This document shows positions 24,321 through 48,600 of a stretch of DNA of 60,862 nucleotides, piece by piece. The stretch lies in sequence record MW749009.1. One strand, 5' to 3'. Position 1 is the first letter of the stretch. Each line of letters starts with the position of its first letter. Position numbers and translations under genes: made by a program. The notes under the pieces are model-generated. The model made no database searches. It was not told where the DNA came from and saw only the letters and a program-made list of their open reading frames with translations. Source of the DNA: Bacillus phage vB_BspP_Dartukuta.

Positions 24321-24372
24321 GCGGTCAGGGCTGGCTGGTATTACCGGCTAGCCCGTTACTGGAGTGAGTGAC

Positions 24373-25191
24373 ATGAAAGTTCTTATTATCGGTATTGCTC
24401 AAGTAGCGCACGCTATTAATGCCGCATATTGCAAAGCGCTTGGTGATGATACTCAAGTCGATTGGGCTAACGCACCTGAATGGCAGCAGAAGTCTGCTAT
24501 CGCTGGCGTAGAAATGCACTTGGCAAACCCCGATGCTACGCCTGAGCAGTCACATGAGTCGTGGCTAAAACAGAAGCTCGATGAAGGCTGGGTATACGGC
24601 GAAACGAAAGATGTAGAAGCCAAGCAGCACCCGTGCTGTGTTCCTTACGCTGATTTGCCAGCAGAACAAAAGGCCAAAGACTACATTTTTCGCGCAGCTG
24701 TTCATGCGGCAAAGACACTAGCTGACTCTATGCCTAAGCCGACACAAGTTAAGCCGGTTGAAGTCGCCGCGCCTACAGGTTTCTCTGGCAAGGTTATCAA
24801 CGTGCAATATGTTGGTGTGCGCGAAGAATGGCTAGACCATACCTACAGCACAGGTCTGCACTTCACAAAAGGACAGGTTCGAGCGATCCCTGTAGTGATA
24901 GCCAATAAGCTATTGCGCCATGCTGATATCTTCCAGCAAGCCGAAGATTTGCACTCACAGGATGATGAAGAAACTCTAATCCTGATTGACCAAGCACAGG
25001 ATAAAGCAGCCGAAGAGGAGGCTAGCAAGCAACGTCACTACGATATTCTGCACGAAGTATCAAAGATGAACCGTGACGGTTTGGTTCAGTTCGCAGCTGA
25101 ACGCTACCAAGTGAAGCTGAATGGCCGCGGCAAAGCTGATGATTTGCGTGAAGAAGTTAATCAGCTAGTTAATCAGTACGGTGTCGTATGA
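24373..25191 (+). CDS. RyR (ryanodine-receptor-like) domain protein
   Basis: Motif HESWLKQKLDEGWVYGETKDVEAKQHPCCVPYADLPAEQKAKDY matches the bacterial/phage RyR domain signature (W..GW.YG...D...K.HP.LVPY..LP.E.K..D). Confidence 0.55.
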   Translation: MKVLIIGIAQVAHAINAAYCKALGDDTQVDWANAPEWQQKSAIAGVEMHLANPDATPEQSHESWLKQKLDEGWVYGETKDVEAKQHPCCVPYADLPAEQKAKDYIFRAAVHAAKTLADSMPKPTQVKPVEVAAPTGFSGKVINVQYVGVREEWLDHTYSTGLHFTKGQVRAIPVVIANKLLRHADIFQQAEDLHSQDDEETLILIDQAQDKAAEEEASKQRHYDILHEVSKMNRDGLVQFAAERYQVKLNGRGKADDLREEVNQLVNQYGVV

Positions 25192-25865
25192 CTCTTCAGG
25201 GCTTAATTGCGGCATTCCGCGTACAGGCTAACGATAAGGTTGAGCCTTACTTTTGGTCTGACGAGGAAGTCACGGGCTACCTGAACAGCGCTCAAAGCGA
25301 GGCGGCTATTCGTGCGCGCCTGATCTATGAAGTTGCCGATGTAGACGTGTGCAGTATTGACGTGATTAAAGACCAGTCAATCTACAACCTCAATCCACTG
25401 CTGTACGAGTTGTCGCATGTCTCATTCAAGGCGGACGGCGAGAAGCAAGGTAACCGTATTTCAATCATGTCGCCCGAAGATATGAGCGGCCTTTGCGCTG
25501 GCGATTGGCGTGAGCGCACAGGCAAGCCGCGATTCGCTGTACAGGCCGACAAGTGGTTAAGGCTTGCGCCTACGCCTGATTCCGACGGGCTGCTGTTCAT
25601 TGAAGGCTACCGCGTACCTAAGCCGATGGATCTAGTCGATGCAGATACTGCGGCGCCTGAAATATCAGAGCTACACCATGAGCATCTGGTCAACTGGGCG
25701 TTACATAAAGCTTTCAGTATTCCCGATGCAGAAGGTTTTGATCCGCAGCGCGCACAAGATGCTGAGCGAGACTTTACCGAATACTTTGGCATACGCCCTG
25801 ATTCAGACTTACGGCGCATTACTCGCGAAGATGTGCCGCATACCGTGGAGGCATTCTGGGTATGA
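25188..25865 (+). CDS. Hypothetical virion protein (225 aa)
   Basis: ORF track; start overlaps the upstream stop. Confidence 0.45.
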   Translation: MTLQGLIAAFRVQANDKVEPYFWSDEEVTGYLNSAQSEAAIRARLIYEVADVDVCSIDVIKDQSIYNLNPLLYELSHVSFKADGEKQGNRISIMSPEDMSGLCAGDWRERTGKPRFAVQADKWLRLAPTPDSDGLLFIEGYRVPKPMDLVDADTAAPEISELHHEHLVNWALHKAFSIPDAEGFDPQRAQDAERDFTEYFGIRPDSDLRRITREDVPHTVEAFWV

Positions 25866-26056
25866 ACAAGCTAGCAATTGACCTGAAGGTTGGCGAAACG
25901 CTAATAATCGGAACGTCATCTATCCGGCTTGAAAAGAAATCAGGCCAGTTGGCGCGCCTAGTAATCCAAGCAGATAACAACACGCCAATCACAACACCTA
26001 AAACAGCGCGCATGAGTGTGCTCCAAGAAACATCGGAGAGTACACATCATGGCTAA
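25862..26056 (+). CDS. Hypothetical small protein (64 aa)
   Basis: ORF track only. Confidence 0.3.
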   Translation: MNKLAIDLKVGETLIIGTSSIRLEKKSGQLARLVIQADNNTPITTPKTARMSVLQETSESTHHG

Positions 26057-26456
26057 CACGCTATTCGACTTCGCACGTCAACGCTTCCTTGAGGCCCAGC
26101 TGAACTGGATGACCGACACCATCAAGGTGATCTTGGTCGATACCGGCGCATACACACCACAGACAGCAGTTCACCAATACCTAGCTGATATTCCTATCTC
26201 TGCGCGTATTGCTGGGCCAGTGACGCTAACCAGTAAAACCACTACAGGCGGTGCGGCAGATGCTGCGGACGTGACATTTACCAGTGTCACAGGCGCATCC
26301 ATTGAGTCGATCATCATCTATTCAGATAGCGGTACTGAATCGACAAGCCCGTTGATTGCCTACATTGATACAGCAACCGGCTTGCCCATCACGCCCAACG
26401 GCGGTGACATTATCGTTACATGGGATAACGGCACCAACAAAATCTTTAAAGTTTAA
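26049..26456 (+). CDS. Hypothetical virion protein (135 aa)
   Basis: ORF track 26016..26456; likely ATG at 26049 (MANTLFDF). Confidence 0.45.
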   Translation: MANTLFDFARQRFLEAQLNWMTDTIKVILVDTGAYTPQTAVHQYLADIPISARIAGPVTLTSKTTTGGAADAADVTFTSVTGASIESIIIYSDSGTESTSPLIAYIDTATGLPITPNGGDIIVTWDNGTNKIFKV

Positions 26457-26479
26457 TGCGCAGCGCGCAGGAGTGCGGC

Positions 26480-26782
26480 ATGACAAAAGCCACAAAGCCA
26501 CCAACACAAGTCGCAGGCGTAGAAGGTATTGCGCCTAAGCCTATCGTGCTCACGCCTGAGTCAAGCAAGATTGATTGGGCGAGAATTATCCAATTGCCGC
26601 CATTCCAAATGTTTGCCGTCGAGCGCGCGCGCAAGTCTGCCGCCGACGTGATGGCATGGATGCCGGCATGGGCGCGCGAGCACGAGAGCGAACAGGCGCT
26701 GTTCGACGACTACTGCCAGTGGCACAAAGAAAAGGGCTACTGGCCAGCAGAGACGCCAATGGGCGAATTGATCGAGCCGTAA
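26480..26782 (+). CDS. Hypothetical protein (100 aa)
   Basis: ORF track 26456..26782; likely ATG at 26480 (MTKATKPP). Confidence 0.4.
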   Translation: MTKATKPPTQVAGVEGIAPKPIVLTPESSKIDWARIIQLPPFQMFAVERARKSAADVMAWMPAWAREHESEQALFDDYCQWHKEKGYWPAETPMGELIEP

Positions 26783-26796
26783 CGAGAGGTTATTTC

Positions 26797-28683
26797 ATGC
26801 CACACATGCCAGGAAATGGCGCCATTTTCGGCGTTATCAGCGAGGACGGTCTAGCAAAGACTGGCTTCCCCGTGAGCCTTGTTGATAGAACCACGGGTAA
26901 ACTGGTGAGCCGACAACTGTCTGACGGAAACGGCGCGTTCGCCTTTAACGGCCTCAACCAGAACACCAATGACTATCAAGTGATTGGGCAGGACGAAGAC
27001 GGCGAAACGTACAAGAATGCGGTGATTCGTGACCGCATCCAGCCAGTGCCCGGATACCAAGGCGCAAGCTACTGGGGCAACTGGCGCTACGCTGCAATCC
27101 AGTACGGCGTCCACTCTTTCTATGACGGGCAGTTGGCCCACAACTATCTGGAAGACACCCAGTCTGGGACTGTGCCGTCGTACTCGGCGGGACAAGCACC
27201 GCGATTCCGATATTCTCCTAATAACTCGACAGGAACAGTAACGAAGCCAGTCATGGATGTTTCCATCACACAGGGAGACCCGAGCATTCCGGCCACTACG
27301 TTTGATTTGAGCACAATGACGGCCTACGGGATGACAAACCCCGCAGGAACCGTAGAGATCGACGCATTTGGAAGTCCTGCAAAGACCGCGCTAGAGCTGG
27401 TTGCTGACTTTTCTACACTTTCTTCGGAGTCTGGGTGGGCATCTTTCACTCATTCGTTATCGCACGAAAACGAAGACCCGAACACTGGAACCAATGTACC
27501 CCATGTAATTGGCCTTTACTACAACATCTCCGGGAAATACCTTCGCATTCAGGTTAACAACACCGGCGATTACCATCTACGGGCTGAACATAGAGTAAAC
27601 GTCGGCGACTTCTCAATGGAGGAGTATCAAGGCGTACATCATGTAGTGGCCTCCGCTGTGTTCGGCGAGGCGCTTAATTTGTACATCGACGGCGTTCTCG
27701 CTCATACGTTTTCTATGGTCGGAATGTCAGCCGCTTTGCGTTATAGAAACAACTCCGCTTATGGTCGAGTAGGCGGAACCCACATCCATGGGGAATACAA
27801 CCAAACCTCTAGCTCTAATCAAGGCATACATATCGCGCGTGGAATTTCTGGAAAGGTGGCTCTTCTCGCTTGGTATTCCAATGCGCTGGATGACGTTCAA
27901 GTTTTGGACTTACACCAAAGCCTAATGGTCGGGGCTGAGCCGAAGCTAACAGGCTTCGCTAAGGAAGTTTTCGCGGACCACCCCACCTTTTACGTCCGGC
28001 TGAACGAGCCAACTGGAACGACTTTCGTTCGGGACATGCTGCGCGGCCATACATCCGACGTTTTTGCCGGAAGGGTCTACGGCGAGACGCTCATGTTGCA
28101 GCCCTCCATCGTCGTTGGCGGCAACACCTTTGGGTTTAACGGTTCGTCATCCGTGCGCTTTAACTACAGCTCCCCGTCACTCTATAACTCCCAAGGGTTC
28201 ACGGTGCTGTGCGTCTTAAAGCCGGAGTTGGAAACTCCAGCTGCGACCGAGACACTGCTTAGATGCACAAACACTAGCGAGGCATACAATCACGGTGTAA
28301 TACTACAAAGGCTGGTCAATGGATGTTTAGGACTGATCTACCGCGCAGGCGGTTTGAACGAACAGATTGATTTCACTGTCCCTATTGGCACGGAGTCCAT
28401 GTGCTTAGCTGCCATTGCGATTGACAAAGTTGCCTTAACTGCCTCGCTTTTCATAAATGGCGAGTTAGCTGAGCAGCAGGTTATTGTTGGATCGTACATC
28501 GACCGACCGCCAAGCAGGGTATCTAACGCCATGTACTATCAGGCGATGATTGGAGGGATCACATCGGATACTGGGGGCATAACATCCCCTTACAGAGGAC
28601 TTCTCGGCGAACTTGCTGTCCTGCAAAACCCTATCACCGCTCAGCGGGCCAAGCAGATCTTCGACGCCACGCAGGTGGTGTAA
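26797..28683 (+). CDS. Tail-associated protein with two LamG/ConA-like lectin-type regions (628 aa), inferred
   Basis: ORF track 26575..28683; ATG at 26797 with GAGAGG upstream. Beta-rich N-terminus; two segments reminiscent of concanavalin-like lectin domains. Fold unverified. Confidence 0.45.
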   Translation: MPHMPGNGAIFGVISEDGLAKTGFPVSLVDRTTGKLVSRQLSDGNGAFAFNGLNQNTNDYQVIGQDEDGETYKNAVIRDRIQPVPGYQGASYWGNWRYAAIQYGVHSFYDGQLAHNYLEDTQSGTVPSYSAGQAPRFRYSPNNSTGTVTKPVMDVSITQGDPSIPATTFDLSTMTAYGMTNPAGTVEIDAFGSPAKTALELVADFSTLSSESGWASFTHSLSHENEDPNTGTNVPHVIGLYYNISGKYLRIQVNNTGDYHLRAEHRVNVGDFSMEEYQGVHHVVASAVFGEALNLYIDGVLAHTFSMVGMSAALRYRNNSAYGRVGGTHIHGEYNQTSSSNQGIHIARGISGKVALLAWYSNALDDVQVLDLHQSLMVGAEPKLTGFAKEVFADHPTFYVRLNEPTGTTFVRDMLRGHTSDVFAGRVYGETLMLQPSIVVGGNTFGFNGSSSVRFNYSSPSLYNSQGFTVLCVLKPELETPAATETLLRCTNTSEAYNHGVILQRLVNGCLGLIYRAGGLNEQIDFTVPIGTESMCLAAIAIDKVALTASLFINGELAEQQVIVGSYIDRPPSRVSNAMYYQAMIGGITSDTGGITSPYRGLLGELAVLQNPITAQRAKQIFDATQVV

Positions 28684-31600
28684 ATGACATTCCTCATCAC
28701 CGGCGTCACGCTGGGCGATGTCAGCGCGACAGGTGATGATTCTTACGTCAGCAATGCCGCTGACTTAGTTCTTGTGGCGTCATGGGATAGTGCGGCTATA
28801 CCTGCTCCCGTGGTGTCACCAGACGTCTCAGGCGCTTTGGTTTCGCTGGATCTCTCTGAATCCTACAAGTCGCCCGCTGGCTCTGCAGTTTCACTGACGC
28901 TCTCAGGAGCGCCATTTGTCTACGCTGGCGCTGTGGATTCCGCGCGATTCGGCATTCCTACCGCAGGCAATGCTGCGCAGGCCGCATATCCCGTAGGATG
29001 GGAGTCTTTTGCGTATGGGTTTACCACTCGCGCGACATTTGATCTGAGTTCGCGCGAGCTGCCGCTTAGCATCGAGGGCGCCTACACCTCGCCGACTGCG
29101 CTCAACGTGGGGCTGTATCTGGACGGCAAGCCGTTAGTGTCGGCTGCCTCCATTGGTGATCAGACGGAGTTCGGCTCTGCTTCGGTGGAATCGCCATTGT
29201 CGGCGCGTCCATTTGGCTTTGATGCCTCCGACCACTCTATTCCGCGCGTCCACCGAGGCGAGACGGGCGCGCGGGTAGAGCTGAGGCTGGATGCTCACTA
29301 TCAATCCCTTCATGGGTCATCGGTCAGCCTGCCGCTATCCGGTGCGCCGCTGGTGCTGGCATCTGCAGGTCTTCAGCAGTTGTTCGGCCTGCCGTCGGTG
29401 GCCAACGCATCGCAAGCATTCTACCCCTTCGGGTTCGACTCTACTGGCTTTGGCTATCGCACACGCGCGTTTCGATCTGACTTAGATAGTGGAAACCTGT
29501 CTCTCAGTTTGGAGGGCAACTACGCCCCTCCTAACGCTGCGGCCATTCAGCTGCTTTGGGCGAGCGAGTCAAAGACGCTTTCGCCCTTCGGCTTCACGGG
29601 CTTGCAGCTCGGTGAGCCTATTGTTCGGGTTGCTCAGCTCTTTCTTGAGGGGATACAGCCGCCTGCGGATGCGGTACCGGCTCCGAGCCTCAAGAACCTC
29701 AATCGCACCGTCTCACCACTGGGCACCGACTTTCTTGAGTCTGGCGCCCACCACTCGGTTGCCAATAGCGGTGTGGCGGTTCGCCCAACTGGGATTTCGC
29801 ACCCTGGACTTGGCGCTCATCGAATCTGGAACTGGCGTCAATACCGCAACATGCAGGGCTTCAACACGGCTCTGTATGGGCGCCCATACCTCCAAGGTGG
29901 TGTTAAGTACATCACGCCAAGTGGTGTCAGCACGACTGTCTATGGTCGCCCGTCTGTCGTCAATACTACAGCCGATCAGTTTGTCAGCCTTGCTGGTCGG
30001 ATAGCTCCTCCATGGGCTGGTAGGCCCGCTGTATCTCCGCGCACTGTGTTCCCCTATGGCGTACTGGGCGCTACATTCGGATCAGCGTTCGTACAGTTCC
30101 CGCCAAGGCCGGTAGGTTGGTTATCAAGCGCGTTTGGCTATCCGGTTATTGAGGATAAGACCAAGTATCTAGCTGCTGGAGGGATAGGTGCTGATGACCA
30201 GTACGGCTATCCAGTAGTTTTCGATCCAACAATTAAGGTTCTTGTTTCGTCCGTTATTCAGTCGGGCGTGTTTGGTGACACGGCAGTTAAGAACAACCGC
30301 TTTGTTCTGAATGCTGAGGGCATTGATAGCGCAAGCGTTTCGCCTTGGGCAACGCTTAGGAACACCAGAAGACTTACCTATGCGAGCGGCTGGCGCTCAC
30401 TTGATTTTGGCGAGAGCAGTGTTACCAATAAAACGCCAAGCATTGCACCAGTAGGCTTTGATGCGCTAAGACTGCCGAACCCAGCAGAAATAGGTATCAG
30501 CTACGCAGTTAGGTTGATCTACACAAGCGGGATCAACAAAGGCGGCATAGGTGTCGCGACTCTAACCAAGACGCCAGAGATTGCACCGAAAGGCATAGCT
30601 GCGCCTACTTTGGGTTTGACGACTGTATGGCACAGAGTAAGAACACTAGAAGTTCGTGGCGCAGACGCATACAAGTCCGGCAGTGCAGATGTTTGGTTTA
30701 GGTATCGCTTCGTACAGCTACAAGATCGCGGCTGGAACGGCTCAGCATACGGCGCGCCAAGGCTAGAACACGAACACAGGGCTATCAATGGTCTAGGAGC
30801 AGACAGCCTAAGATCAGGCACGCCTTATATCGGGCTGAGAAATAGAACGATTGCGCCTGAATCAGCGTGGGAAGACTTTGCTACAGGCCACATGGTTGGT
30901 GGTCTACGGTTCTTGCGCCCAGTTGGATATGAGGCTACGCGCTGGGGTACGCGGATCATTCCTGAAATAACTCAGGTCTATGTAAGAGGGTTTTCAAACA
31001 GCTACGGCATACCCACGCTGAGGAACAATACTAATCTTATCCTTCCGGCAGGTATCACGACAACGCCTGATCCAGTAGATCAATGGGGAACCGCAAAACT
31101 CCACAACAGCAGGCAGTTCGTGTCAATGTTCTATGACGTTGATAGCGAATTAAACCCTCCTAAGTGGTCGCAGTGGACGCTGATTGAGAACAGGAATAAA
31201 TACTTAGCTACTACTGGCAACGAGATGTTGCGTATCGGTAGATCAGTAGTCGCCAATGCTGCTACAGCAGTTATCCCCTCCGCAATACTTGCGCCGGAGT
31301 GGAGTAAGGCGAGTGCTTCAGGGATGGTCGCGTTCCGTATAAGACCGCTAAACCTTGACTCTATCGAGCCGCCATACTTCAGCGGGTGGCTAAATATATA
31401 CAACGATGCCCCTGTGCTTGGATCTAAAGGTTTCAATGCAGAGAGCTTCGGCGTATCAGTTGTTGAAAATACGCGCAGGACATTTAAGTTCCAAGGCTTT
31501 GATAGTGCATGGTTCGGCTACCCAATGGTTGCGTTCAGGATCCGGCACATTAAGTTTGAGGGTCGCTACACGATTGCGCCACCGCCTATCAGGATGCAAG

Positions 31601-33066
31601 AGGTCAAGCTGTACACACGCTACCTAGATCCTATTGGGTACGAGACTTACGGTTCTGGCGCTCAGTCGCTAAGTATCCACTGGACGCTAATCACACCACG
31701 ATGGACTCATCAAGACCTGTTTGGAGAACCTAGAGTTCATAACGTAACACCTGAAGTGAAAACGCGAGGCAGGGTATCCGAAGAGTTCGGTAATGCTTTC
31801 GTGCGCCTTGAATGGAGAGAACTAATCACTCATGAAGCATTCACGCAGATCATCCCTAAGCCTATCGTGGCTTTCAGGGATCGCGCTATCGAAGTGAATG
31901 GCATCCGGTCAATGGTATTCGGTGACAAGCTAAAGGTAACGAAAACAGGCGCGCCACCTTACTCAGACCAGCTAATCATTCTTGCTAATGCTGACGTTAC
32001 TAAGAACGGTTACGGGATTGAGGTGCCTAAAGATCAGGTTCCTAAACCAATCATGAATCAACAGGTTCTATACCATCGCTCTGATTCAGTGATGACAAAA
32101 TTCGGATCACTTAGAATTACTGCCAACATGATTCGTGTTGAGCCAGGATTCCAAGAGCTTAGCGTAGGTGAGCCTATGGTTAGCTTGAAGATTAGAACCG
32201 TTGAGGTTAAAGAGTTTCCAGGAGATCAGATTTTTCAGCCATCAAAGCCGCGCCTGTCACCTCATACAATCTGGGCTGTGAAAGAAGCGCCTGCGCAAGC
32301 TAAGGTAAATCACACCTCTTCTTCATTGCACTATGTTGATGAATATCCTGGCAGTGGATGGAGAAAGGGATTTGGCAGGCCATCCGTGTTTCTTTATACC
32401 GGACTTGTTAATACAAGAGGGGCAAACCATGCTGCTGTAGGTAAGCCCAGTGCTTATAACGCCTTGTCTTATATCAGGCCGAAAGGCATAAAATTAGACC
32501 GTTATGGGTGGCACACAGTACCTGGCGAGCAAATATCTGAGCAGATCAATTCATCCGATACAATGGTATTTGGTATTACAAAAGTTGGCAGGCCGCCTTA
32601 TGTTGGGCCACAAACAATAGCTGCGAAGGGTTTATCTGCTATTTTTTGGGGAGCTAGCGACATACAGCTATTACACAGGCAAATCTACCCTAGAGGGCAC
32701 TTGTCTATGGCAATGGGTACAAGACGTGGAGGAGATAGTCCGTATATGTGGCAAGGGTTGAGAATAGGCGAGCTGATGCCGACCATACCTGAAGGTTTTT
32801 CAGCTGAGCTAATCGGTGAGCCTTGGCTTTCATTTAGAGTTCGCGAAGTTAATCCCGATGGGTACGATGCGTTTATATCTGATTACGACCTAACTGCTTT
32901 CTCTAGGCGCATGAAAGTATTCCGTAAAGAAGTACCTAGCAGCGTAGATCACATAAAACCTGAAGGCTTTGATGCTTTTGCTTCGAGTGCTTCTGACGTT
33001 AAACCATTAGCGCACTTTATCCGGCCTGATGGAAACAGCGACCAATATCGTAAAGGAGCCTTCTAA
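28684..33066 (+). CDS. Large repetitive virion protein (1460 aa) with >20 F/Y-G-x-P motifs
   Basis: Recurrent FGYPVI, YGRPYL, FGEPRV, FGRPSV, YGIPTL motifs at ~30-60 aa spacing; start overlaps the upstream stop (TAAATG). Confidence 0.55.
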   Translation: MTFLITGVTLGDVSATGDDSYVSNAADLVLVASWDSAAIPAPVVSPDVSGALVSLDLSESYKSPAGSAVSLTLSGAPFVYAGAVDSARFGIPTAGNAAQAAYPVGWESFAYGFTTRATFDLSSRELPLSIEGAYTSPTALNVGLYLDGKPLVSAASIGDQTEFGSASVESPLSARPFGFDASDHSIPRVHRGETGARVELRLDAHYQSLHGSSVSLPLSGAPLVLASAGLQQLFGLPSVANASQAFYPFGFDSTGFGYRTRAFRSDLDSGNLSLSLEGNYAPPNAAAIQLLWASESKTLSPFGFTGLQLGEPIVRVAQLFLEGIQPPADAVPAPSLKNLNRTVSPLGTDFLESGAHHSVANSGVAVRPTGISHPGLGAHRIWNWRQYRNMQGFNTALYGRPYLQGGVKYITPSGVSTTVYGRPSVVNTTADQFVSLAGRIAPPWAGRPAVSPRTVFPYGVLGATFGSAFVQFPPRPVGWLSSAFGYPVIEDKTKYLAAGGIGADDQYGYPVVFDPTIKVLVSSVIQSGVFGDTAVKNNRFVLNAEGIDSASVSPWATLRNTRRLTYASGWRSLDFGESSVTNKTPSIAPVGFDALRLPNPAEIGISYAVRLIYTSGINKGGIGVATLTKTPEIAPKGIAAPTLGLTTVWHRVRTLEVRGADAYKSGSADVWFRYRFVQLQDRGWNGSAYGAPRLEHEHRAINGLGADSLRSGTPYIGLRNRTIAPESAWEDFATGHMVGGLRFLRPVGYEATRWGTRIIPEITQVYVRGFSNSYGIPTLRNNTNLILPAGITTTPDPVDQWGTAKLHNSRQFVSMFYDVDSELNPPKWSQWTLIENRNKYLATTGNEMLRIGRSVVANAATAVIPSAILAPEWSKASASGMVAFRIRPLNLDSIEPPYFSGWLNIYNDAPVLGSKGFNAESFGVSVVENTRRTFKFQGFDSAWFGYPMVAFRIRHIKFEGRYTIAPPPIRMQEVKLYTRYLDPIGYETYGSGAQSLSIHWTLITPRWTHQDLFGEPRVHNVTPEVKTRGRVSEEFGNAFVRLEWRELITHEAFTQIIPKPIVAFRDRAIEVNGIRSMVFGDKLKVTKTGAPPYSDQLIILANADVTKNGYGIEVPKDQVPKPIMNQQVLYHRSDSVMTKFGSLRITANMIRVEPGFQELSVGEPMVSLKIRTVEVKEFPGDQIFQPSKPRLSPHTIWAVKEAPAQAKVNHTSSSLHYVDEYPGSGWRKGFGRPSVFLYTGLVNTRGANHAAVGKPSAYNALSYIRPKGIKLDRYGWHTVPGEQISEQINSSDTMVFGITKVGRPPYVGPQTIAAKGLSAIFWGASDIQLLHRQIYPRGHLSMAMGTRRGGDSPYMWQGLRIGELMPTIPEGFSAELIGEPWLSFRVREVNPDGYDAFISDYDLTAFSRRMKVFRKEVPSSVDHIKPEGFDAFASSASDVKPLAHFIRPDGNSDQYRKGAF

Positions 33067-34256
33067 TGGCAGATTTACCACTGATGCCGCTTGCCGGTAT
33101 GAACAATGTAGCTGAAGAAGCAGCCTTAATGCGTGGCGGCGACTCGCCAGCAGTGTTTGCGCGAGACGTTGTGAATATCAATGTGTCGCCAGCAGGAAAG
33201 GCAATGCTAAGAGACTGCGCGCACCGCGTTAGCACGCTGAAGATCAGGGAGCTATGGCAAAGCCCGTTACATCGAGAGTCGTTCGGTGCGGTTGGTGACG
33301 AGTGGGGAAAGGTTGGCGCATTAAGCTGGTCGTTTGATCCTATGGTCAGTATCGGTAACGGTCCAGTGTCGCATGAAGTGTTGAACAACCTTGTTTGCGT
33401 GGCTGGCGACTCCGGCATATTTACCTATGACGGCAGAACTTCTCAAAAGCTAACGATTGAAAACCCACCCGCACCACTCGTGATAACTGGAAGCGGCTCA
33501 ATGGTTGCTGGTATGTACGGCGTGTCGGTGGCATGGCTTAGGGGGGCTACCGAGTCAGCACCTTCTGCAATCGCGTTTACGGACGTTCCTGATGAAGGCG
33601 GTATGCAAATTATTCTGCCGATGTGCCTTGATGACAGCGTGACAGGTGTGCGGCTGTACATGACACGCCAAAACGGTGGAGAGCTTGCAAGAGTCGGTGA
33701 TTACCAGATTGACGCAACAACCGTTGATATTCCGGCTTTGCCTAAACTTGGCGCGCCACCGCAGTTTCTTAATAAGTCGCCAATGCCTACAGGTAAGTAT
33801 CTGAAGTATTGGCGAGGCCGTCTGCTTACTTCCCGCGCCAATGTGCTTCGCTTTTCTGAGTCTATGGCCTATCACTTGCACGATGAGCGCCACGGGTTCG
33901 TACAGATGCCACAGCGCATAACCTTTGTTGAGCCTGTGGATGGCGGGATATGGATTGGCCAAGTCGATCACGTTGCCTTCCTCGAAGGCGCAACACCTGA
34001 CGAGCTTGTCATGCAAAGAAAGACCGCTTGCGCACCAGTGGCCGGTAGTTCAATTCAAGTGCTGGCCGACACGATTGGTGGCGAGCTTTCACAGGGCGGA
34101 TCTGCCACTGTGTTATGGCTCGCAGAGAATGGTTATGTAGCTGGCACAGCAAGCGGCCAAGTGGTTGAAATGCAGACAGGCGTTATGAAAGGTATCACCG
34201 CAGAAAACGGCACTTCTGTAGTGCTGGATCGCAGAGTGCTTACCGCTGTAACCTAG
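33066..34256 (+). CDS. Hypothetical virion protein (396 aa)
   Basis: ORF track; overlapping start (TAATG) with the upstream gene. Confidence 0.45.
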   Translation: MADLPLMPLAGMNNVAEEAALMRGGDSPAVFARDVVNINVSPAGKAMLRDCAHRVSTLKIRELWQSPLHRESFGAVGDEWGKVGALSWSFDPMVSIGNGPVSHEVLNNLVCVAGDSGIFTYDGRTSQKLTIENPPAPLVITGSGSMVAGMYGVSVAWLRGATESAPSAIAFTDVPDEGGMQIILPMCLDDSVTGVRLYMTRQNGGELARVGDYQIDATTVDIPALPKLGAPPQFLNKSPMPTGKYLKYWRGRLLTSRANVLRFSESMAYHLHDERHGFVQMPQRITFVEPVDGGIWIGQVDHVAFLEGATPDELVMQRKTACAPVAGSSIQVLADTIGGELSQGGSATVLWLAENGYVAGTASGQVVEMQTGVMKGITAENGTSVVLDRRVLTAVT

Positions 34257-40607: not shown

Positions 40608-42596
40608 ATGGTTATGCAGGGTTTTAAGCCTCGTGATCAGCGAGATAATCAGTCAAAAAAACAATCAAAACAAAAGAAAGCAAATCTTGGCTTTGCGAAT
40701 GGCGGCATGATTCGCGGCCCCGGCACGGGCACGTCTGATGATATTGAAGCCGAGATGCCTGCTGGCTCTTACGTTATGCCTGCTGATTCAACCGAGCAAA
40801 TCGGTGAAGAAGGTTTAGCCAGCATGGGATCGCCAGCTGATGTACGCGTATCTAATGGCGAATACCAGTTACCACCTGAGCAGGTTCACGCTATAGGCGT
40901 GCAAGCACTTGACCAGATGAAGGACGCTACGCATACACCAGTAGCGCAAGGCTTTAACCCTCAAGTCAATCGTGATGGTGAGCAGTTCTTTAATCAGGGC
41001 GGTGTCACGCTTGGTGATGAAGAAGCCAAGCGAAAGGCAGCGCAGATGCAAAACCAGTCACCGATTGCACCGCCGCCTCAATCATCTTCACCAGCAGCAA
41101 GCACTGAACAACTGAATGCCGAAAGAGCCAATAGATTAGGCGCGCAGAAAGAAGCTGACACAGCTATGCGCTCAGAGCAGAGAAAGGCAGGCGCGAGAGC
41201 TATTGAGAACACTAAAAGCAATGTATCAGCAGCGGTTGATTCTATTGGGGGTTTTGTTGGCGATACATATAAGAACGTCCTTAACGCTGCGACAGTTGTA
41301 CCAAGGACAGCTTATGGCATAGCCACTGGAGGGATAGACCCTCACCAGCCTGCTAGGCACCCAGGCGCAGATATTGTTGATGCTAACAAAGCAAAACTAG
41401 CCGAGCAGGCAGCTTTGTCGCAGCAGCGTAACCAGCAGTTTAGCGCCACAATGGGCGGTGCTCAATCACAGATGGATGCAGTATCTGGTTTATTCCCAAA
41501 TCAAAAACCAGCAGCTTCTGGTACGCCAATGCAGGCGCTTGAAGCCAGCCAACCTGTAGCTGAAACTGGCACGCCAATAGCGCAAGAACAGTCAGGCCAA
41601 CAACCAGCAAGCGAGCAGTCTGCAGCACAACAGTCAGTAACAAGCCAAGAGCCATTACAGCCGCAGAACGCTGGCTTTCAGGCTGAGCTAAACAACGTAA
41701 CCAGAGACGGCAATAGCTTCAGCGGTGGAATTGTTCGCCCCGGCTACACGATAAACGGCCAAGCTCAAGGTGGCGTAAACGTCATGCCAGCAGAGCAAAG
41801 CGCACAGAACAAACAGGCTGTTGCAAATCTATTTGAGCGCACGCCAGAGTTCGGCACCGGCACAGCCCCGATACAGCAACAAGCACAAGGCTTTACTCCT
41901 AACGGTGGTGGTGGCCAACGATTCACAGTTGTTGGTGACAACTCACGGCAGGATGCTGATTACAGAAAAGCATTCAATGCCGCAAGCACTGCGCACCGTG
42001 GCGCTCAAAACGGCCAGCTAACAGCAGCGCAGTTAAGGTCAATGGAAGGCTTAACCAAAAACAAATACGGCACGGCAGACGCAAATCAAAGCAACGCAAC
42101 TTCGCGTGCAAACAGTGATAGCACCAACTCGGCAAATATCCTTCAGACAAATATGCGTGAGGCAGGATCAGACCGTAGAGCCTCAGCTACCAACAACCTT
42201 GATAACCGCAGGCTGGATCAAGCCGAAAGACTTTCAGCGCCACAGATTCAGGCGGCAGAAGAAAAGCAGAGTCTCTACAAGCGCTTTAATGAGGCTGAAA
42301 CAGAAGAGCAGAAAAGTGAAATCCTTAACCAAATGAGAATACTCAACGGCTCTGGTGGCTCACAAGAAAACCTAAGAAACAACTTCATGCAGCTTGGCGG
42401 CGGGCAAGAAATGGTAGACGGCGTACTGCGTAATGTTCCTCAGCGACTCATTGATCTTAGAACAGGTCAAGAAGTTCTAGGGGGCCAGCAAGAGCAAAAG
42501 CCAGACACGAAACGCTTTGAGAAAAACAAGATTTACCGCGACAAGAGCGGGACTCGATTCATGTGGGATGGTGAAAAGGCTGTTCCAGTTAACTAA
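40608..42596 (+). CDS. Low-complexity Gln/Ala/Gly/Asn-rich virion protein (662 aa)
   Basis: ORF track; compositionally biased; directly upstream of the giant gene. Confidence 0.5.
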   Translation: MVMQGFKPRDQRDNQSKKQSKQKKANLGFANGGMIRGPGTGTSDDIEAEMPAGSYVMPADSTEQIGEEGLASMGSPADVRVSNGEYQLPPEQVHAIGVQALDQMKDATHTPVAQGFNPQVNRDGEQFFNQGGVTLGDEEAKRKAAQMQNQSPIAPPPQSSSPAASTEQLNAERANRLGAQKEADTAMRSEQRKAGARAIENTKSNVSAAVDSIGGFVGDTYKNVLNAATVVPRTAYGIATGGIDPHQPARHPGADIVDANKAKLAEQAALSQQRNQQFSATMGGAQSQMDAVSGLFPNQKPAASGTPMQALEASQPVAETGTPIAQEQSGQQPASEQSAAQQSVTSQEPLQPQNAGFQAELNNVTRDGNSFSGGIVRPGYTINGQAQGGVNVMPAEQSAQNKQAVANLFERTPEFGTGTAPIQQQAQGFTPNGGGGQRFTVVGDNSRQDADYRKAFNAASTAHRGAQNGQLTAAQLRSMEGLTKNKYGTADANQSNATSRANSDSTNSANILQTNMREAGSDRRASATNNLDNRRLDQAERLSAPQIQAAEEKQSLYKRFNEAETEEQKSEILNQMRILNGSGGSQENLRNNFMQLGGGQEMVDGVLRNVPQRLIDLRTGQEVLGGQQEQKPDTKRFEKNKIYRDKSGTRFMWDGEKAVPVN

Positions 42597-42616: not shown

Positions 42617-45600
42617 ATGAGCTTTGAAGTTGATTTAGACAGCGCTGTTCTTGAGGGTGATTATTATGGAGATGATACTAGGGTCAAGCCTGAGAGCAGC
42701 AGTTCAGGCTTTAGCCCTGAAGCAGGTCCCGCAAAGCAGCCAGCTCCCTTTAGCGTTGACCTAGAAAGCGCTGAGCTAGACGAAAAAGCCAACCAGGGCT
42801 TTATTGGAACATTAGCTGACGGTGCAAAATCGGCAGGTAGAGCCATTAGCTCTACTTACAATACTTATACTGGCGATGGTCAAGCAGTTGTTGATAACGC
42901 CAAGGCTCAAGAACTGGCCAATGAAGATAAAAGCCAAGACATTAAAAACTTCCAGTCTGACTGGGCGGCAAATACGGGCGCAGGTACTGATGACGAAGTA
43001 GGCTTATGGGGTGCTATCAAAGGCACTGGAAAGGCAATTATTGATAACCCTCGTGGTGCCGCCCTTTCAGTAGTTGAGCAATTCCCTAATTCAGTTCCAG
43101 CACTGGCCGCAGGCTGGGCAGGCGCTAAAGGCGGCGCAATGGCAGGGGGCGCAGTCGGCTCGGCTTTTGGTGGTGTCGGCGCTGGGCCTGGCGCTTTAAT
43201 TGGTGGCGCCGCGGGGTTTGTTGGCGGCATGTTCCTCGGTAATACGTTGACCGAAACGGGCCATAAGGCGCAAGAGTACGCTGCCGATGGTGAGTTCACG
43301 CCAGATGAGCAGTCAGCAGCTATTACCGAGGGCGCGAAAAAAGCCGGTGTTATTACAGCCGTAGATGCGCTTACCTTTGCTGTCGGTGGCAAGGTTTCTG
43401 GATACTATCGGAAAACAGCAGAGTCAACAGTTGAGGCAGCTACTCGCAAAACACTGCTTGACGCTGGTGTTGATATTAGCGATACAGCAGCGCTTACTGC
43501 GGCAAGAGGTAGCCCACAAATTGCAAGCCAAGTTGTTGAAGCGCAGAAAAATGCGGCAAAGATTGCAGACAATCTACGCAAGCGCGCAGGCGAGGCAGGC
43601 GCGCTACTTACAATGGAAACAGTCGGCGAAGGCTTAGGTGAATACTTAGGCGAACTGGCAGCGACTGGACAAGCAAGCGTAGCAGAGGCCGTGCTAGAGA
43701 GCTTCTTGTCGCTAGGTCAGTCTGGCGTTCAGTCGATGTTTAACTTTGCCAAGGCGCGAGAGCGTTCGCTCACTGACCAAGAATGGATTGATGCGTCAAA
43801 CGGTATTGCGCCAGAAGGTATGGCACCAGAGCAAATGCCGGTTGCTGATGGTATATGGGATAAGCCAACTCCAGAAGCCAAGATCGACATGGGGCAGATG
43901 CAGGGTGGCGGCGTAACACCGACACCTGTATTTGACCCGCAAGACATTGATCGCAACCTTGCACCGACACCATCGCAGCAAATGGGAATTAACCCTGATG
44001 CTGGCCCACTTTCTGCTGCTGCAGCGCAGTCAGTTGATAGTGGCTTGTTTACAGGCGGGTTTACCCCACAAGCCGGAATTAACCAATCGGCACTTGAGCG
44101 CGAGGGCGTAACGCCGCCGCCAGTATTAGATACTGACCAGATTGACCGCAACTTAGGAAGTATTGATCCATTAACAGGTGAGTACATGCCTGCACCTGAG
44201 CAGTTAGGTCAGTCGAGTCAAGCGGGAGGCGCCGGTAATTATGAGTATGACCAATGGGGCAACCTAAGCAGCGTTGATGGCCGCACAGTAGATGGTTACG
44301 GTCAAAACCAACCACGCCTTGGTTTTAATAGTAAAGCCGAGCGCAGCACCGCGCCGTTATATGAAGTTGGGCCTGATGGTGTGGCGCGTCCATCTTCAGG
44401 AGAGGCGGCGCGGAGTAGAAAAGAACGTATTGACCTATCATCGCTGAAAGGTAGACAGCAAACCCAAGCGCAAAAACAGCCTGCTGCTATGCCAGAGCAG
44501 CGTAGTCCTGAACAGCAAGCGCAATCTATCTGGGATTCAATGAATACCTTTGAGCGTAACGCTGCAGCAGCAAATGTTCTTGGTATGCGCGGCGTACCGG
44601 CTAAGAATGCAGCCACAAAAGCATGGGATAAGCTAAGCTCTGAACAGCAGGCCAAGCTCGTAACTGGACTTGAGAGCCAGCAAGGGAAACGCTGGATAGA
44701 CCCTAATCAGAAAGTGACTGACCAAACTGGCCCTGTGCTACAAAACCGCGACCGCACAAGCCAAGACTCAATCAATCAGATGCGAAGCATCTCAAACAAT
44801 CCAGACTACAGCAGGTTAAAAACATCAGGCTTCTTGTCTGACGGTGCGCCTGTTGTTGTTGATGAGAATATTCAAATACCAGCGTCACAGATGGGCGTTA
44901 CTGATACTGCTTCTGCAGGAAACGAGCGCTTTAACGTGCAGTACGCAGTAGTTGAAGCCGACCAGTTAATGACCAGTAACAGCATTGACGGTACCACTAA
45001 CGCTGAATACCAGACAGGGGCTGCAGGTAAGGCTAGAGCAATTGCAGGTAATGGACGAATCACTGGCTTGCAATCAGCATGGGCTAAAGGCAACGCCAGC
45101 CAATACAAAGCCGATATGGCAGCCGATAGAATGCACGGCATTGACCCGGCCGTTATTGAAGGCATGCGCAATCCTGTTTTAGTCCGCTTATTGCCGCAGG
45201 ATCAGGTCACTGACAATATTGGCGACCTAAGCAACAGAGACGAGAAAGGCAGACTTTCGCCGGTCGAGCAAGCCAAAACAGATATGGGCCGCATTGACCT
45301 TGATAGCCTAAAGTTTACTGCTGAAGGTGCTATCGGTGGCGAAGCGATCCACCAGTTCCGCATGGCTCAACCTGCAGCTGAGCGCGTGAGTGAGGCAGAG
45401 GCACGGAAGCGACTGACTTCTGCTGTCTTCCAAAAGGCATACGGAAACGATCAGCTTACAGAAATCCAGTCTGGTGAAAGTGACGATGCCAAATCAATCT
45501 TATCAGCACTGGCACAAGCAGCCCCAAGCATGTCACGTCTTGAAGGAGCTGGTGAGTTTGATATTCGCCCACTAATCACGCAGGCAGGCATTGCGGCTGT

Positions 45601-48600
45601 AAACGCAGCGCGTAGAGGCACTAAACTTGCTGATTATGTTCAGCAGTCAGAAATGGGTATTGATCCAATGGTATACCCAATTCTGGAAATGATGCTGAAC
45701 GAGAATGGCAATATCCGTAGTAGCAAATACATCGGCGAACAGCTAACCAATATGGCAAAGTTGGCTTATGATGAAGCCAACTCACCTAGCTCAGATATGT
45801 TTGGCGAAAAACCCAAGCGTACAGCTGAGCAGGTTATTCAAGACGCGCTTACTGGAGTACAAGGTTATGGCCAAATCAATGACGGAAGAGGGCAAGAAAG
45901 TCTGGGGCAGCGAGGGCGGTCAGAACCTGATGCGCAAATGGTTGAAGGGCCAGAAGGCGGACGAGAGCGACCAGCAGACACTAGACAAACTGCACCAACT
46001 CAACCAGAAGCAGAGCAAGAACAACCCGCAGCAGTAGAAAGCAATGCGCCTGAAACATGGCGCAGTAACTACATTCAAGCCGCCAAGATTGCACGCGAAA
46101 AAGGCATTAATCCTAAGCAGCATAAAAAACTCGCTGACTTGGTTGAAGCTATTGATGCGTCAAACACTAAACCTGAAGCTCAAACACAGCTAACAGCACA
46201 ACAGAAGCAGGCTTCAGGCAGTGTAGATGGTGCAAAAGTCCATCTTAACAACAGCATTGACCTAACCAGCGCATTAGCTGCAATCGCACGCGGCGCACAA
46301 TTAAGCACCGAGCCAAACGGTGACGTTATTCTTAGTGGCACCAAGATAATTACGCTTCCAAAGCCGCCAACTTCTATTGATGAAGTTATTGCCCCGTTAG
46401 CCACAGCCTTACTAGAACAAATGCGAGCAGATGGCGTTTCTATGCCTGGCAACCCAGCGGACATGACGCGGGATCAGTTTGCTATTGCCTATCACTTTGC
46501 AAACATAATTCCAGAGTTTGAAATCAGCGGAGCAGATATTGGTGGCGTAGTCCAAGGATCAAGCCGTGGCTTAACAGTAGACTCAGACAAGCTATACGAC
46601 AAGATCATCGAGCAAGCCAAAGAGCAGGCTAAACCAGCCTTGGAGCTTAACCAGCAAACCGAAGAATCCTTAGCTAAAGATGCCAAACGATTAGAGCAGC
46701 TGCAGAAAGAAGAAGCTGCGCAGAAAGTCGCGCAGAAAGCTGCAGAAAGGAAACAGCGTGAGCGTGACGCAGACAAGGCCAGAGCGGACGAAGTGGTTGA
46801 TGACTTCCAGTTGGGGCAGTCTGCAGAAGAAGTAATGTCTGGCATGGGTGATATTTTTGCGACTGAGAGCAAGCCAGCAGATAAAGGCATTGCGTCTCAA
46901 GCCGATGACAGCCATGTCACAGTTGTTGATAACCAATACAACCCAAACCCTACAGAAGCGCAGAAGCAGGCTGGCAACTACAAGAAGGCTCACGTTAAAT
47001 TCCAAGGCCTTGATATCACAGTAGAGAATCCAGTCGGATCAGTGCGCAGTGGCGTAGATCCTGACGGCAATACTTGGTCAAATACTATAAAGCATGATTA
47101 CGGATACATTAAGCGCACTAAGGGCGCTGACGGCGACCATGTTGATGTGTTTATAGGTAAAGATACCGAAAGCGATAAGGTATTTGTAATTGATCAGCCG
47201 CACAAAAACGGTAAGTTCGACGAACACAAAATCATGCTCGGCTTTAAAGACCAGACGCAGGCCGTAGAAGCGTACAAAGGCAACTATCAGAAAGACTGGA
47301 AAGTTGGCTCTGTCACTGAAATGACTGTGGGCGAATTTAAGCAGTGGCTTAGCAATGGTGATACCACCAAACCGGTTGAGCCAGTCGCGAAGCCAGCAGC
47401 GCAAACAAAGCCAAGCCAAGCCATTGAGGACTTTGGTGAGAGGCTGGAAGGCGCACGCAAGGATTACGCCAGCAAACTATCTGACGCTAAAGAGGTAGAC
47501 ATTGCGACTGAGCCACTATCAAAGTCTTGGCCAGAGCCGAATTATCAGAAGTTGATTGACGGAGGAATGCCGCTAGAAACAGCAAGTATTGTTCGTGCTA
47601 TTCGTGATGAGATTCCAGTGAAGCCGCGCGCATCATGGCGACTGAAAGGATGGGTGCGACAAGTAAGCGAAATGCGTGATTTAGCCTTGAATTTGATGGG
47701 GGAAACAGCTACAGCTAAAGTGATTGTAGAGCAGATAAAATCTAATAAATCTTTATCAGACATAGTGAATCGTGCAGACCTGTACTCGGCAGTTGGGCAC
47801 GATAAAAGCCTAAAAGATATTAGTTTAAAACAAAGCTCTTACTCGTTGATTGATGGTGTTAAATACTCGCCACCGAAAGAGCTCTGGACGGTTGAAAGGC
47901 CGATTAAAAGCAGCGTAATAAGCAACATGCCCAGACGTATTGCGACAGCTGAAACAAGAGAGCAAGCGATTGCCAAATTCAAAAATGCGTATGCAACATT
48001 GGACGAAAGCAAACGTGTCAAGAACAAAGCAGTTGAGTTTGGGGTTTATACAGACAGAACCACAAAAGATGTTTTCATTGGCCGGAAGGTTGGCAAAAGT
48101 ATTGCTCGCGTAAAAACTGGATTCGAAACTGCTAAAGATGCAATTGCACACCTAAAGGAAAACTATGCTGCTCTTGAAGAGCGGTTTAACAAGATGAAGG
48201 ATACGCCCGATCATCGTAAGGCTGAAAACTCACCTAGAGTTGGCGTTGATCACCGAAATGGCGCGGATGTAACACCGGAGCAGTTCTCTGATACGTTCGG
48301 GTTCAGAGGGGTGCAGTTCGGTAACTATGTAGAGCAAGGACGTAGGCAGCAGGATCTAAATGAAGCCTATGATGCGCTTATGGACATGGCTGGCGTGTTA
48401 GGTATTCCAGCAAAATCTCTATCTTTAAATGGTGAGCTTGGACTAGCGTTTGGTGCTCGTGGTAAGGGTGGAAAACAAGCAGCTAAAGCGCATTATGAGC
48501 CAGATCAAATTGTTATTAACTTAACTAAGAAAAATGGCGCAGGCAGCCTTGCTCACGAATGGTGGCATGCGCTTGATAACTATTTTGGCCGCGAGCGTGG

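Follow-up and report, generated by a model that had tools for sequence, protein, structure and literature searches.

The gene and its product

The window analyzed here is a stretch of 60,862 nucleotides from Bacillus phage vB_BspP_Dartukuta (sequence record MW749009.1), read on one strand from 5' to 3'. We focused on gene 50, a tail-module gene whose 1460-residue product contains a long array of a 22-residue repeat. The open reading frame (ORF) is exactly the one called in an earlier, sequence-only reading of this DNA (+ strand, ATG start, 1460 amino acids), and its product is identical in sequence to the database entry DARTUKUTA_50, which is named "hypothetical protein." The parts of the gene are as follows.

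28684..33066, + strand: repeat-protein ORF (Dartukuta gene 50), ATG start, 1460 amino acids, 158.9 kDa, isoelectric point (pI) 9.2
28693..29115, + strand: N-terminal module A, residues 4-144, the first of two duplicates of ~145 amino acids, lineage-variable
29134..29553, + strand: N-terminal module B, residues 151-290, the duplicate of module A
29785..31125, + strand: contiguous array of the 22-residue repeat, residues 368-814, ~20 units, basic, pI ~10
31126..33063, + strand: conserved C-terminal region, residues 815-1460, with units paired or tripled between non-repeat inserts
32245..32313, + strand: most conserved internal motif, KPRLSPHTIWAVKEAPAQAKVNH, residues 1188-1210, with columns nearly invariant in alignments of 150 and of 70 sequences
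33013..33063, + strand: extreme C terminus, HFIRPDGNSDQYRKGAF, residues 1444-1460, nearly invariant

Composition analysis of the protein revealed no Cys and no transmembrane or hydrophobic segment, and Gly, Pro, Ser, Thr, and Asn together account for 32-38% of its residues. The two N-terminal modules are 39% identical to each other (E 2e-24, internal BLASTP) and the region that they make up, residues 1-290, is acidic with a pI of 4.5. This duplicated acidic region is present in only a few homologs. Within the conserved C-terminal region, repeat units are located at residues 914/936, 1005/1027, 1153, 1222-1266, and 1369. The family consensus of the motif at residues 1188-1210 is GKPRLSPHTIYAVxEAPxQAxxNH, and in the same two alignments the family ends in a near-invariant HYIRPDGNSDQxRKGA motif. 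We propose that this extreme C terminus (residues 1444-1460) may be the docking end of the protein.

A 22-residue repeat

The sequence-only reading had described more than twenty F/Y-G-x-P repeats at fairly regular spacing. All six hexapeptides quoted there were found in the protein (YGRPYL at residue 398, FGYPVI at 484, YGIPTL at 774, FGYPMV at 944, FGEPRV at 1013, and FGRPSV at 1230). The strict motif [FYW]-G-x-P occurs 11 times, as compared to an expectation of 1.08 ± 1.0; none of 2000 shuffles gave more than 6. A hidden Markov model (HMM) of the repeat was anchored on these 11 strict sites and iterated over 26 homologs, resulting in the unit consensus PRGFDASRFGRPRVSNRTRY. The unit is 22 residues long and can be written as φ-x-P-x-G-φ-D-S-x-x-[FY]-G-x-P-x-[VI]-x-N-x-x-R-x. 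The iterated HMM finds 18-21 copies in the Dartukuta protein at an independent E-value below 0.01, and 37 when the weak ones are counted. The figure of more than twenty therefore holds for the degenerate unit (37 copies with weak ones) and fails for the strict motif (11 copies), and F/Y-G-x-P, while real and regular, is better described as the most conserved part of the 22-residue unit.

The conservation of the unit was quantified from 1760 units across 150 family members. Counted from the proline, position 1 is Pro in 37% of the units and position 3 is Gly in 75%; these are followed by a hydrophobic residue at position 4, Asp or Asn at position 5, and Ser or Ala at position 6. Positions 9 and 10 are Phe/Tyr (67%) and Gly (97%), position 12 is Pro or Ala, and position 14 is Val or Ile (82%). 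The remaining preferences are for Asn at position 16, Arg at position 19 (57%), and Ile, Leu, or Val at position 21 (82%). The spacing is as regular as had been suggested: family-wide, 339 pairs of neighboring units lie exactly 22 residues apart, which is the peak of the distribution, and harmonics appear at ~44 and 66-69 residues. No copies were found when the same HMM was applied to shuffled family sequences. At the DNA level, no tandem repeats were found in the gene, which indicates that the repeats are old and visible only at the protein level.

In every locus examined, copies of the repeat are confined to the homolog of gene 50, and the same HMM found none in a KPP25-like phage. The number of copies differs by lineage, with 12 in the homolog from Pseudomonas phage F116, 13 in H66, 20 in 8P, and 18 in a Delftia prophage, as compared to the 18-21 in Dartukuta. 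These differences resemble, by analogy, the variation in shaft length seen in fibers. The short forms of the F116 type are without approximately the first 10 units of the array, and the alignment with F116 begins only at residue 586.

A widespread family with no assigned function

The only PHROG found for the protein is phrog_11272 ("unknown function"), which matches over residues 439-1460 with an E-value of 4.8e-261. An exhaustive profile search places the family at 862 representatives (clusters at 50% identity) at E<=1e-3 and 529 at E<=1e-30, and the proteins range from 608 to 1730 amino acids among the 150 family matches listed. By tblastn, gp16 of phage 8P is 49% identical over residues 280-1460, and F116 gp51, H66_0053, and the homologs in LKA5 and phiC725A are 39% identical over residues 586-1460; matches were also obtained in Shewanella Y11 and Pseudoalteromonas Y7. 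The named members are all "hypothetical protein" and come from phages and prophages of Gram-negative bacteria, namely Pseudomonas, Acinetobacter, Delftia, and Shewanella.

Pfam gave no match for the 1460-residue protein, nor did 25 family members match a Pfam model at E<=1, and no precomputed Pfam domain was present among the named members. NCBIfam and direct PDB sequence searches with the protein were likewise without a match, as was a megablast search against phages. The view that this is not a named repeat family has thus held, since PHROG 11272 is the only assignment, and no search placed the protein confidently in a well-known tail protein family. We conclude that the 22-residue unit is an undescribed repeat and that the family, which is catalogued and widespread, consists of homologs that are all without an assigned function.

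Gene neighborhood

The structural genes of Dartukuta are of the type found in F116-like Pseudomonas podophages (Hollowayvirus and relatives). The gene order begins with a terminase, a portal, a scaffold-like protein, the major capsid protein, and an adaptor. It continues with a CsrA-like small ORF, two further small ORFs, a protein with a LamG domain, gene 50, and a 396-residue protein, and it ends with several large proteins and a 4203-residue protein. The neighbors that bear most directly on gene 50 are the following.

25188..25865, + strand: tail adaptor, Pfam SU10_adaptor, matching PDB 26fb chain T (E 6e-6), at the start of the tail module
26797..28683, + strand: LamG-domain gene upstream of gene 50, ~628 amino acids from the likely ATG (MPHMPGNG...), with a LamG/ConA-like lectin domain
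33066..34256, + strand: putative nozzle gene (tubular tail B), 396 amino acids, homolog of F116 p52, matching PDB 26fb chain K (E 5e-8)

The three genes from the LamG gene to the nozzle gene are tightly packed. The stop codon of the LamG gene directly abuts the ATG of gene 50 (TAAATG), and the stop codon of gene 50 overlaps the start of the nozzle gene by 1 nucleotide (TAATG). The order of variable gene, repeat gene, and nozzle gene is kept in F116, H66, 8P, the Delftia prophage, Y11, and two metagenomic contigs. The LamG-domain protein also has a weak match to a tail-fiber PHROG. A longer, 702-residue form of its ORF with a TTG start (26575-28683, + strand) overlaps the preceding gene (26456-26782) by ~200 nucleotides, and the ATG at 26797 is probably the real start; over its first 64 residues, the TTG ORF is 72% identical to 8P read in an alternative frame, a likeness for which DNA conservation is the most likely cause.

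The assignment of the F116 p52 homolog as tubular tail B (the nozzle) was made by Hardies et al. (PMC4819975), who also described the giant protein of the module as a homolog of the internal virion protein IVP-D fused to a methyltransferase-like domain. The same authors defined an "F116 homology subgroup" of podoviruses and did not mention gp51. We assigned PDB 26fb, which supplied the structural matches for the adaptor and the nozzle, to a KPP25-like (Kochitakasuvirus) Pseudomonas phage that is 99.6% identical to CRPAP1904 (locus 10230-13849). No paper describing 26fb and no paper on Dartukuta was found in the literature. As the nearest solved tail to the F116 group, 26fb could be used as a template for the hub.

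Conservation polarity and exchange of the N-terminal cassette

The repeat protein is less conserved than its structural neighbors. As compared to 8P, F116, and the Delftia prophage, it is 49%, 39%, and 39% identical, respectively, while the corresponding values are 67%, 61%, and 54% for the nozzle and 76%, 71%, and 57% for the portal. Conservation within the protein is polar, as all 150 aligned relatives have its C-terminal ~870 residues and its N-terminal length and sequence vary between family members. The gene just upstream is unrelated among most of the phages compared, yet its product always carries a LamG/ConA-like lectin domain.

Two loci show how the variable end is inherited. The P0005 locus has a distant core (identities of 39% for the tandem array and of 46% for the C-terminal region), yet its N-terminal 290 residues are 50% identical to those of Dartukuta and its upstream gene is 49% identical over the full length. 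The P0257 locus has a closer core (58% in the array and 66% in the C-terminal region), yet its N terminus and upstream gene are both divergent. Therefore, the upstream gene and the 5' end of gene 50 are exchanged as one unit. Such a pattern is that of a receptor-binding module, and it suggests that the two products may act together at the variable end. The presence of one variable and one conserved end, together with exchange with an adjacent gene, is what is expected of a tail fiber, with a polarity opposite to the usual one.

The position and the variable end of the gene also bear on whether the product could be an internal protein that is packaged in the capsid and ejected to bridge the cell envelope. 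The protein is basic, and several ejection-type genes lie just downstream in the module. However, gene 50 is upstream of the nozzle gene and outside the block of internal virion proteins, and its product is periodic and rich in Gly, Pro, Ser, and Thr (the 32-38% given above, with Asn included), as compared to internal proteins that are highly alpha-helical (Hardies et al., PMC4819975). The variable N terminus and the cassette shared with a lectin gene speak for external exposure, and an ejected protein is in our judgment most improbable.

A separate observation in the module concerns a 662-residue protein (40608-42596, + strand), whose similarity to 8P, F116, and Delftia is limited to its N-terminal ~120 residues (57-63% identity), the rest being unrelated. 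A conserved N terminus and a variable C terminus are the classical pattern of a receptor-binding protein, making this gene a second host-range candidate.

A putative C-terminally anchored tail fiber or shaft

Our favored reading, to which we give a probability of roughly 45%, is that the gene 50 product is an appendage on the outside of the tail in an F116-like podophage, in the form of a long shaft or fiber that is made from the 22-residue repeat, is anchored by its C terminus, and has a variable N-terminal tip acting with the LamG protein. Its location in the tail module beside the adaptor and nozzle genes is that expected for a tail fiber. Each unit would provide short strands and two glycine turns, and stacking of the units would result in an elongated basic rod. 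The conserved C-terminal ~650-870 residues, which end in ...IRPDGNSDQYRKGAF, would attach the protein to the conserved hub of the tail. The variable N-terminal region would be the distal end, consisting in Dartukuta of the two acidic modules of ~145 amino acids, and might work with the upstream variable LamG protein to make contact with the host surface or pili. Bundled copies could then form the thin, rigid "tail" of 66-72 nm on the carrier phages, which are without annotated tail-tube or tape-measure genes. Of this picture, the repeat, the family, the synteny, the polarity of conservation, and the joint inheritance of the cassette come from sequence comparison, and the fold, the oligomeric state, the place in the virion, the direction of anchoring, and the contact with a receptor are inferred.

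The support for the last step comes from published electron microscopy (EM). The head of phage phiC725A measures 78 nm, and its tail was described as "a short thin tail (66 nm)" with no flexibility or contractility, and Shewanella phage Y11, whose homolog has 1386 amino acids and lies in the same module, has a 72 nm "long noncontractile tail" (PMC10846135). The genomes of the carriers hold a podovirus set of tail genes, and no annotated feature named tail tube or tape measure was found in the regions examined, so some large protein must build the long thin structure. Leaving aside the block of internal proteins, no tail-module protein is larger than the gene 50 product. A published reinterpretation of the thin, rigid, tail-like structure favors bundled fibers, and the gene 50 product is the best candidate, as yet unproven, for the long thin fiber bundle that gives F116-like phages their long-tailed look. 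Among phages with the repeat-gene module, EM typing has resulted in a siphovirus (vB_SbaS_Y11), myoviruses (vB_PaeM_USP_18/25), and podoviruses (F116, phiC725A, and Dartukuta), a mixture that points to a tail-like structure which is easily misread.

The same micrographs could be read in terms of a tube or sheath, with six copies of the protein matching the hexameric nozzle and forming a hollow extension or collar around or below it, such that the "tail" would serve as a genuine conduit, or else solenoid rods would make up a rigid sheath. The thin, rigid, non-flexible, and non-contractile appearance of the structure, the 1-nucleotide overlap with the nozzle gene, and the conserved C terminus agree with this arrangement, and the strongly basic repeat region (pI ~10) would suit contact with DNA. 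However, the protein has no similarity to tail tube, sheath, or nozzle proteins, and the genome has retained all of the putative IVP-like proteins of the podovirus set, to which formation of the transient channel is attributed. Co-inheritance of the variable N terminus with a lectin-domain gene has the look of host recognition and not of a conduit, and the published preference is for bundled fibers. We therefore consider a tube or sheath unlikely.

Several observations weigh against a fiber or shaft, beginning with the only direct evidence, which is negative. In the record of phage H66, the portal, capsid proteins, adaptor, upstream 285-residue protein, nozzle, and giant IVP-D protein are annotated as "verified by mass spectrometry as part of the virion," and the 987-residue homolog H66_0053 is absent from this list. 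The sequence-only reading had called the product a virion protein; that label derives from gene position and is not borne out by the H66 annotation. The mass spectrometry (MS) list also omits H66_0056-0059, four other large module proteins that are presumed to be in the virion, and is therefore incomplete.

The H66 list raises the question of whether the protein is a stable virion component at all, or instead a large morphogenetic factor, such as a scaffold or template for tail assembly, or a protein of very low copy number. Both flanking products were verified by MS and the 987-residue homolog, which should yield many peptides, was not. The omission of H66_0056-0059 indicates limited sensitivity, however, and fiber proteins that resist sodium dodecyl sulfate (SDS) or proteases are commonly under-detected. 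In addition, a protein of 1000-1700 amino acids with a host-range-like variable cassette would have an unusual profile for a chaperone. On balance, we judge a non-virion role to be unlikely.

Further points against the fiber or shaft arise from the comparison of phages and from the protein itself. The KPP25-like phage CRPAP1904 has a 20 nm tail (PMC13340246), and its genome has homologs of the adaptor and the nozzle and is without the repeat-protein gene. This contrast is confounded, as BLAST-detectable homologs of g868, g385, and g631 are absent as well, and with these three downstream genes also without a detectable homolog, the value of the KPP25-like phage as a clean natural knockout is weakened. 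A proportional relation between protein length and "tail" length was considered and rejected, as 987 amino acids correspond to 66 nm and 1386 amino acids to 72 nm. A conserved C terminus with a variable N terminus is the reverse of most characterized tail fibers. PDB sequence and family-profile searches revealed no similarity to solved fiber, spike, tube, sheath, or nozzle proteins. Lastly, AlphaFold2 produced no usable model, with a mean predicted local distance difference test (pLDDT) score of 33 for residues 280-1460 with 25 sequences and of 39.7 for residues 586-1460 with 70 diverse sequences.

Fold of the repeat and comparison with CroV588

Given the outcome of AlphaFold2, any beta structure is a suggestion drawn from the unit itself. 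The four hydrophobic positions (4, 9, 14, and 21), the two glycine turns, and the conserved Asn are what might be expected of a beta-solenoid rung or a stack of beta-hairpins. The "long beta-repeat fiber or tube" of the sequence-only reading is to this extent plausible, and it fits the tail-module slot, the abutment to the nozzle gene, and the thin, rigid "tails" of 66-72 nm.

The family profile matched a single solved protein, CroV588 (PDB 6nyr), with an E-value of 0.13 when built from 25 sequences and of 1.4e-9 when built from 150. CroV588 is an FNIP/FGxxFN leucine-rich-repeat (LRR) protein, in which the 22-residue unit LxxLxFGxxFNQxIxENVLPxx is repeated 25 times (Huyton et al. 2022, PMC9525666). 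Taken at face value, the match would make the phage protein a true FNIP/FGxxFN LRR solenoid, homologous to the FNIP repeats of giant viruses and Dictyostelium and forming a curved or ring-shaped protein-binding module instead of a straight fiber. The match to the 150-sequence profile is in register over ~14 units with the same 22-residue period. When the two unit profiles (22 columns each) were compared, the best circular shift aligned P1, hydrophobic 4, F9-G10, and hydrophobic 21, with a z of 3.2 among shifts and a p of 0.0085 against column permutations.

The controls reduced the weight of this match. The real CroV588 sequence scores 36.3 bits, as compared to at most 1.9 bits for ordinary shuffles and 23.5 bits for the reversed sequence. 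When positions within the unit were permuted identically in all repeats, 6 of 200 scrambled versions scored at least as high as the real sequence, the highest reaching 69 bits. The E-value of 1.4e-9 is thus inflated by common periodicity, and the leftover resemblance is modest. The two repeats have neither the FN/Asn position nor the LxxL motif in common, the Pfam FNIP model matches 0 of 25 family members, and AlphaFold2 produced nothing although it usually folds LRRs readily. Homology to the FNIP LRRs was therefore downgraded after the reversed, shuffled, and periodic-permutation controls; we regard it as distinctly improbable and have not filed the protein as an FNIP LRR. More generally, periodicity can account for most of a seemingly strong profile match (E 1e-9) when repeat proteins are compared.

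Other features of the window

A 275-residue protein (24364-25191, + strand) with a ryanodine-receptor (RyR) domain (Pfam E 4.9e-12) is encoded between the capsid genes and the adaptor gene, and its H66 homolog bears the same annotation. Within the tail module, a 64-residue ORF (25862-26056, + strand; MNKLAIDLKVGETLIIGTSSIRLEKKSGQLARLVIQADNNTPI...) occupies the slot of the "CsrA-like regulator" genes F116 p47 and 8P gp11. NCBIfam gave no match for this ORF, and the presence of a homolog of an RNA-binding global regulator amid tail genes is unexplained. The next protein, of 146 residues (26016-26456, + strand), belongs to PHROG 644 (unknown function) and is called "minor tail subunit" in 8P. With its counterparts in 8P, F116, and the Delftia prophage it shares 88-91% identity, as compared to 40-75% for the neighboring structural proteins, which is unusually strong conservation.

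At the far end of the module, the 4203-residue ORF (42617-55228, + strand) is a homolog of the giant virion protein H66 gp60/F116 p59-60, which Hardies et al. (PMC4819975) describe as an IVP-D homolog with an S-adenosylmethionine-methyltransferase-like domain. Dartukuta carries the podovirus adaptor/nozzle/IVP-D tail set, as do other podovirus groups in that study. The GC content of Dartukuta is ~50%. The record is named for Bacillus, whereas its structural genes have detectable relatives only in phages or prophages of Gram-negative hosts (Pseudomonas, Acinetobacter, Delftia, Shewanella, and Pseudoalteromonas), and the host label deserves to be checked.

Significance

F116 is a classic generalized transducing, type IV pilus-specific Pseudomonas phage, and prophages related to it are common in Pseudomonas, Acinetobacter, and Delftia. 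The repeat family examined here, with 862 clusters that are all "hypothetical," has a clear repeat architecture, varies in the number of its repeats, and carries an N-terminal cassette that can be swapped. If the protein is a fiber or shaft, it would provide a handle on host-range engineering of F116-like phages as well as a new repeat fold among phage fibers. If it is not, the family would still be a widespread, large tail-module protein without an assigned role. On the favored reading, the protein would be a tail appendage with a repeat that is undescribed, in a family already catalogued as PHROG 11272.

A bolder proposition, and one that we hold to be doubtful, is that a new structural repeat class builds the rigid 66-72 nm "pseudo-tail" of F116-like podophages, with the C terminus at the nozzle and with an exchangeable N-terminal domain and a LamG adhesin at the tip. 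If true, the pseudo-tail would be a long, tail-like adsorption organ made without a tail tube or tape measure, and it would explain why these phages have been typed as siphoviruses, myoviruses, and podoviruses.

Comparison with known systems

The first comparison is with the nozzle of the T7 gp12 type, including the split nozzle gp30:gp31 of PhiXacm4-11, in that the repeat gene adjoins the putative nozzle gene and overlaps it by 1 nucleotide. By contrast with a split nozzle, the KPP25-like nozzle homolog (398 amino acids, solved in PDB 26fb) is of the same size as that of Dartukuta and occurs without a member of the repeat-protein family. The nozzle therefore does not require the repeat protein as its other half, and a role as a split-nozzle partner was rejected. 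Neither family profile matched nozzle proteins in the PDB. PhiXacm4-11 itself was rejected as a relative, being a 43-kb Cp2-like phage with different tail genes.

The FNIP/FGxxFN LRRs (PF05725) share with the phage repeat a 22-residue tandem period, a Pro near the unit boundary with a hydrophobic residue three positions on, an aromatic-Gly pair at positions 9-10, and a hydrophobic position 21. They differ in that the phage unit is without the LxxLxFGxxFNQ core, has its Asn at position 16 and not directly after a second Phe, and contains neither FN nor a Leu-rich strand with LxxL. With support of only p ~0.01-0.03 after control for periodicity and a different biological setting, homology between the two is unproven.

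The side and tail fibers that podophages carry at the adaptor-nozzle junction, such as T7 gp17 and PhiXacm4-11 gp36, resemble the repetitive and probably elongated gene 50 product in that their genes belong to the tail module, one end of the protein is conserved and the other variable, and an adjacent, variable lectin-type gene is associated with them. The putative gene 50 appendage differs from T7 gp17 and PhiXacm4-11 gp36 in having no sequence similarity to them and a reversed polarity, in which the C terminus is conserved and the N terminus variable. Its gene is also upstream of the nozzle gene and not after the genes for internal proteins.

The closest comparison is with F116 gp51, H66_0053, and 8P gp16, which are true homologs with 39-49% identity, the same repeat, and the same slot between the variable gene and the nozzle gene. 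Relative to F116 gp51, the Dartukuta protein is longer by ~10 tandem units, and to all three it adds the duplicated acidic N-terminal region that is rare among its relatives.

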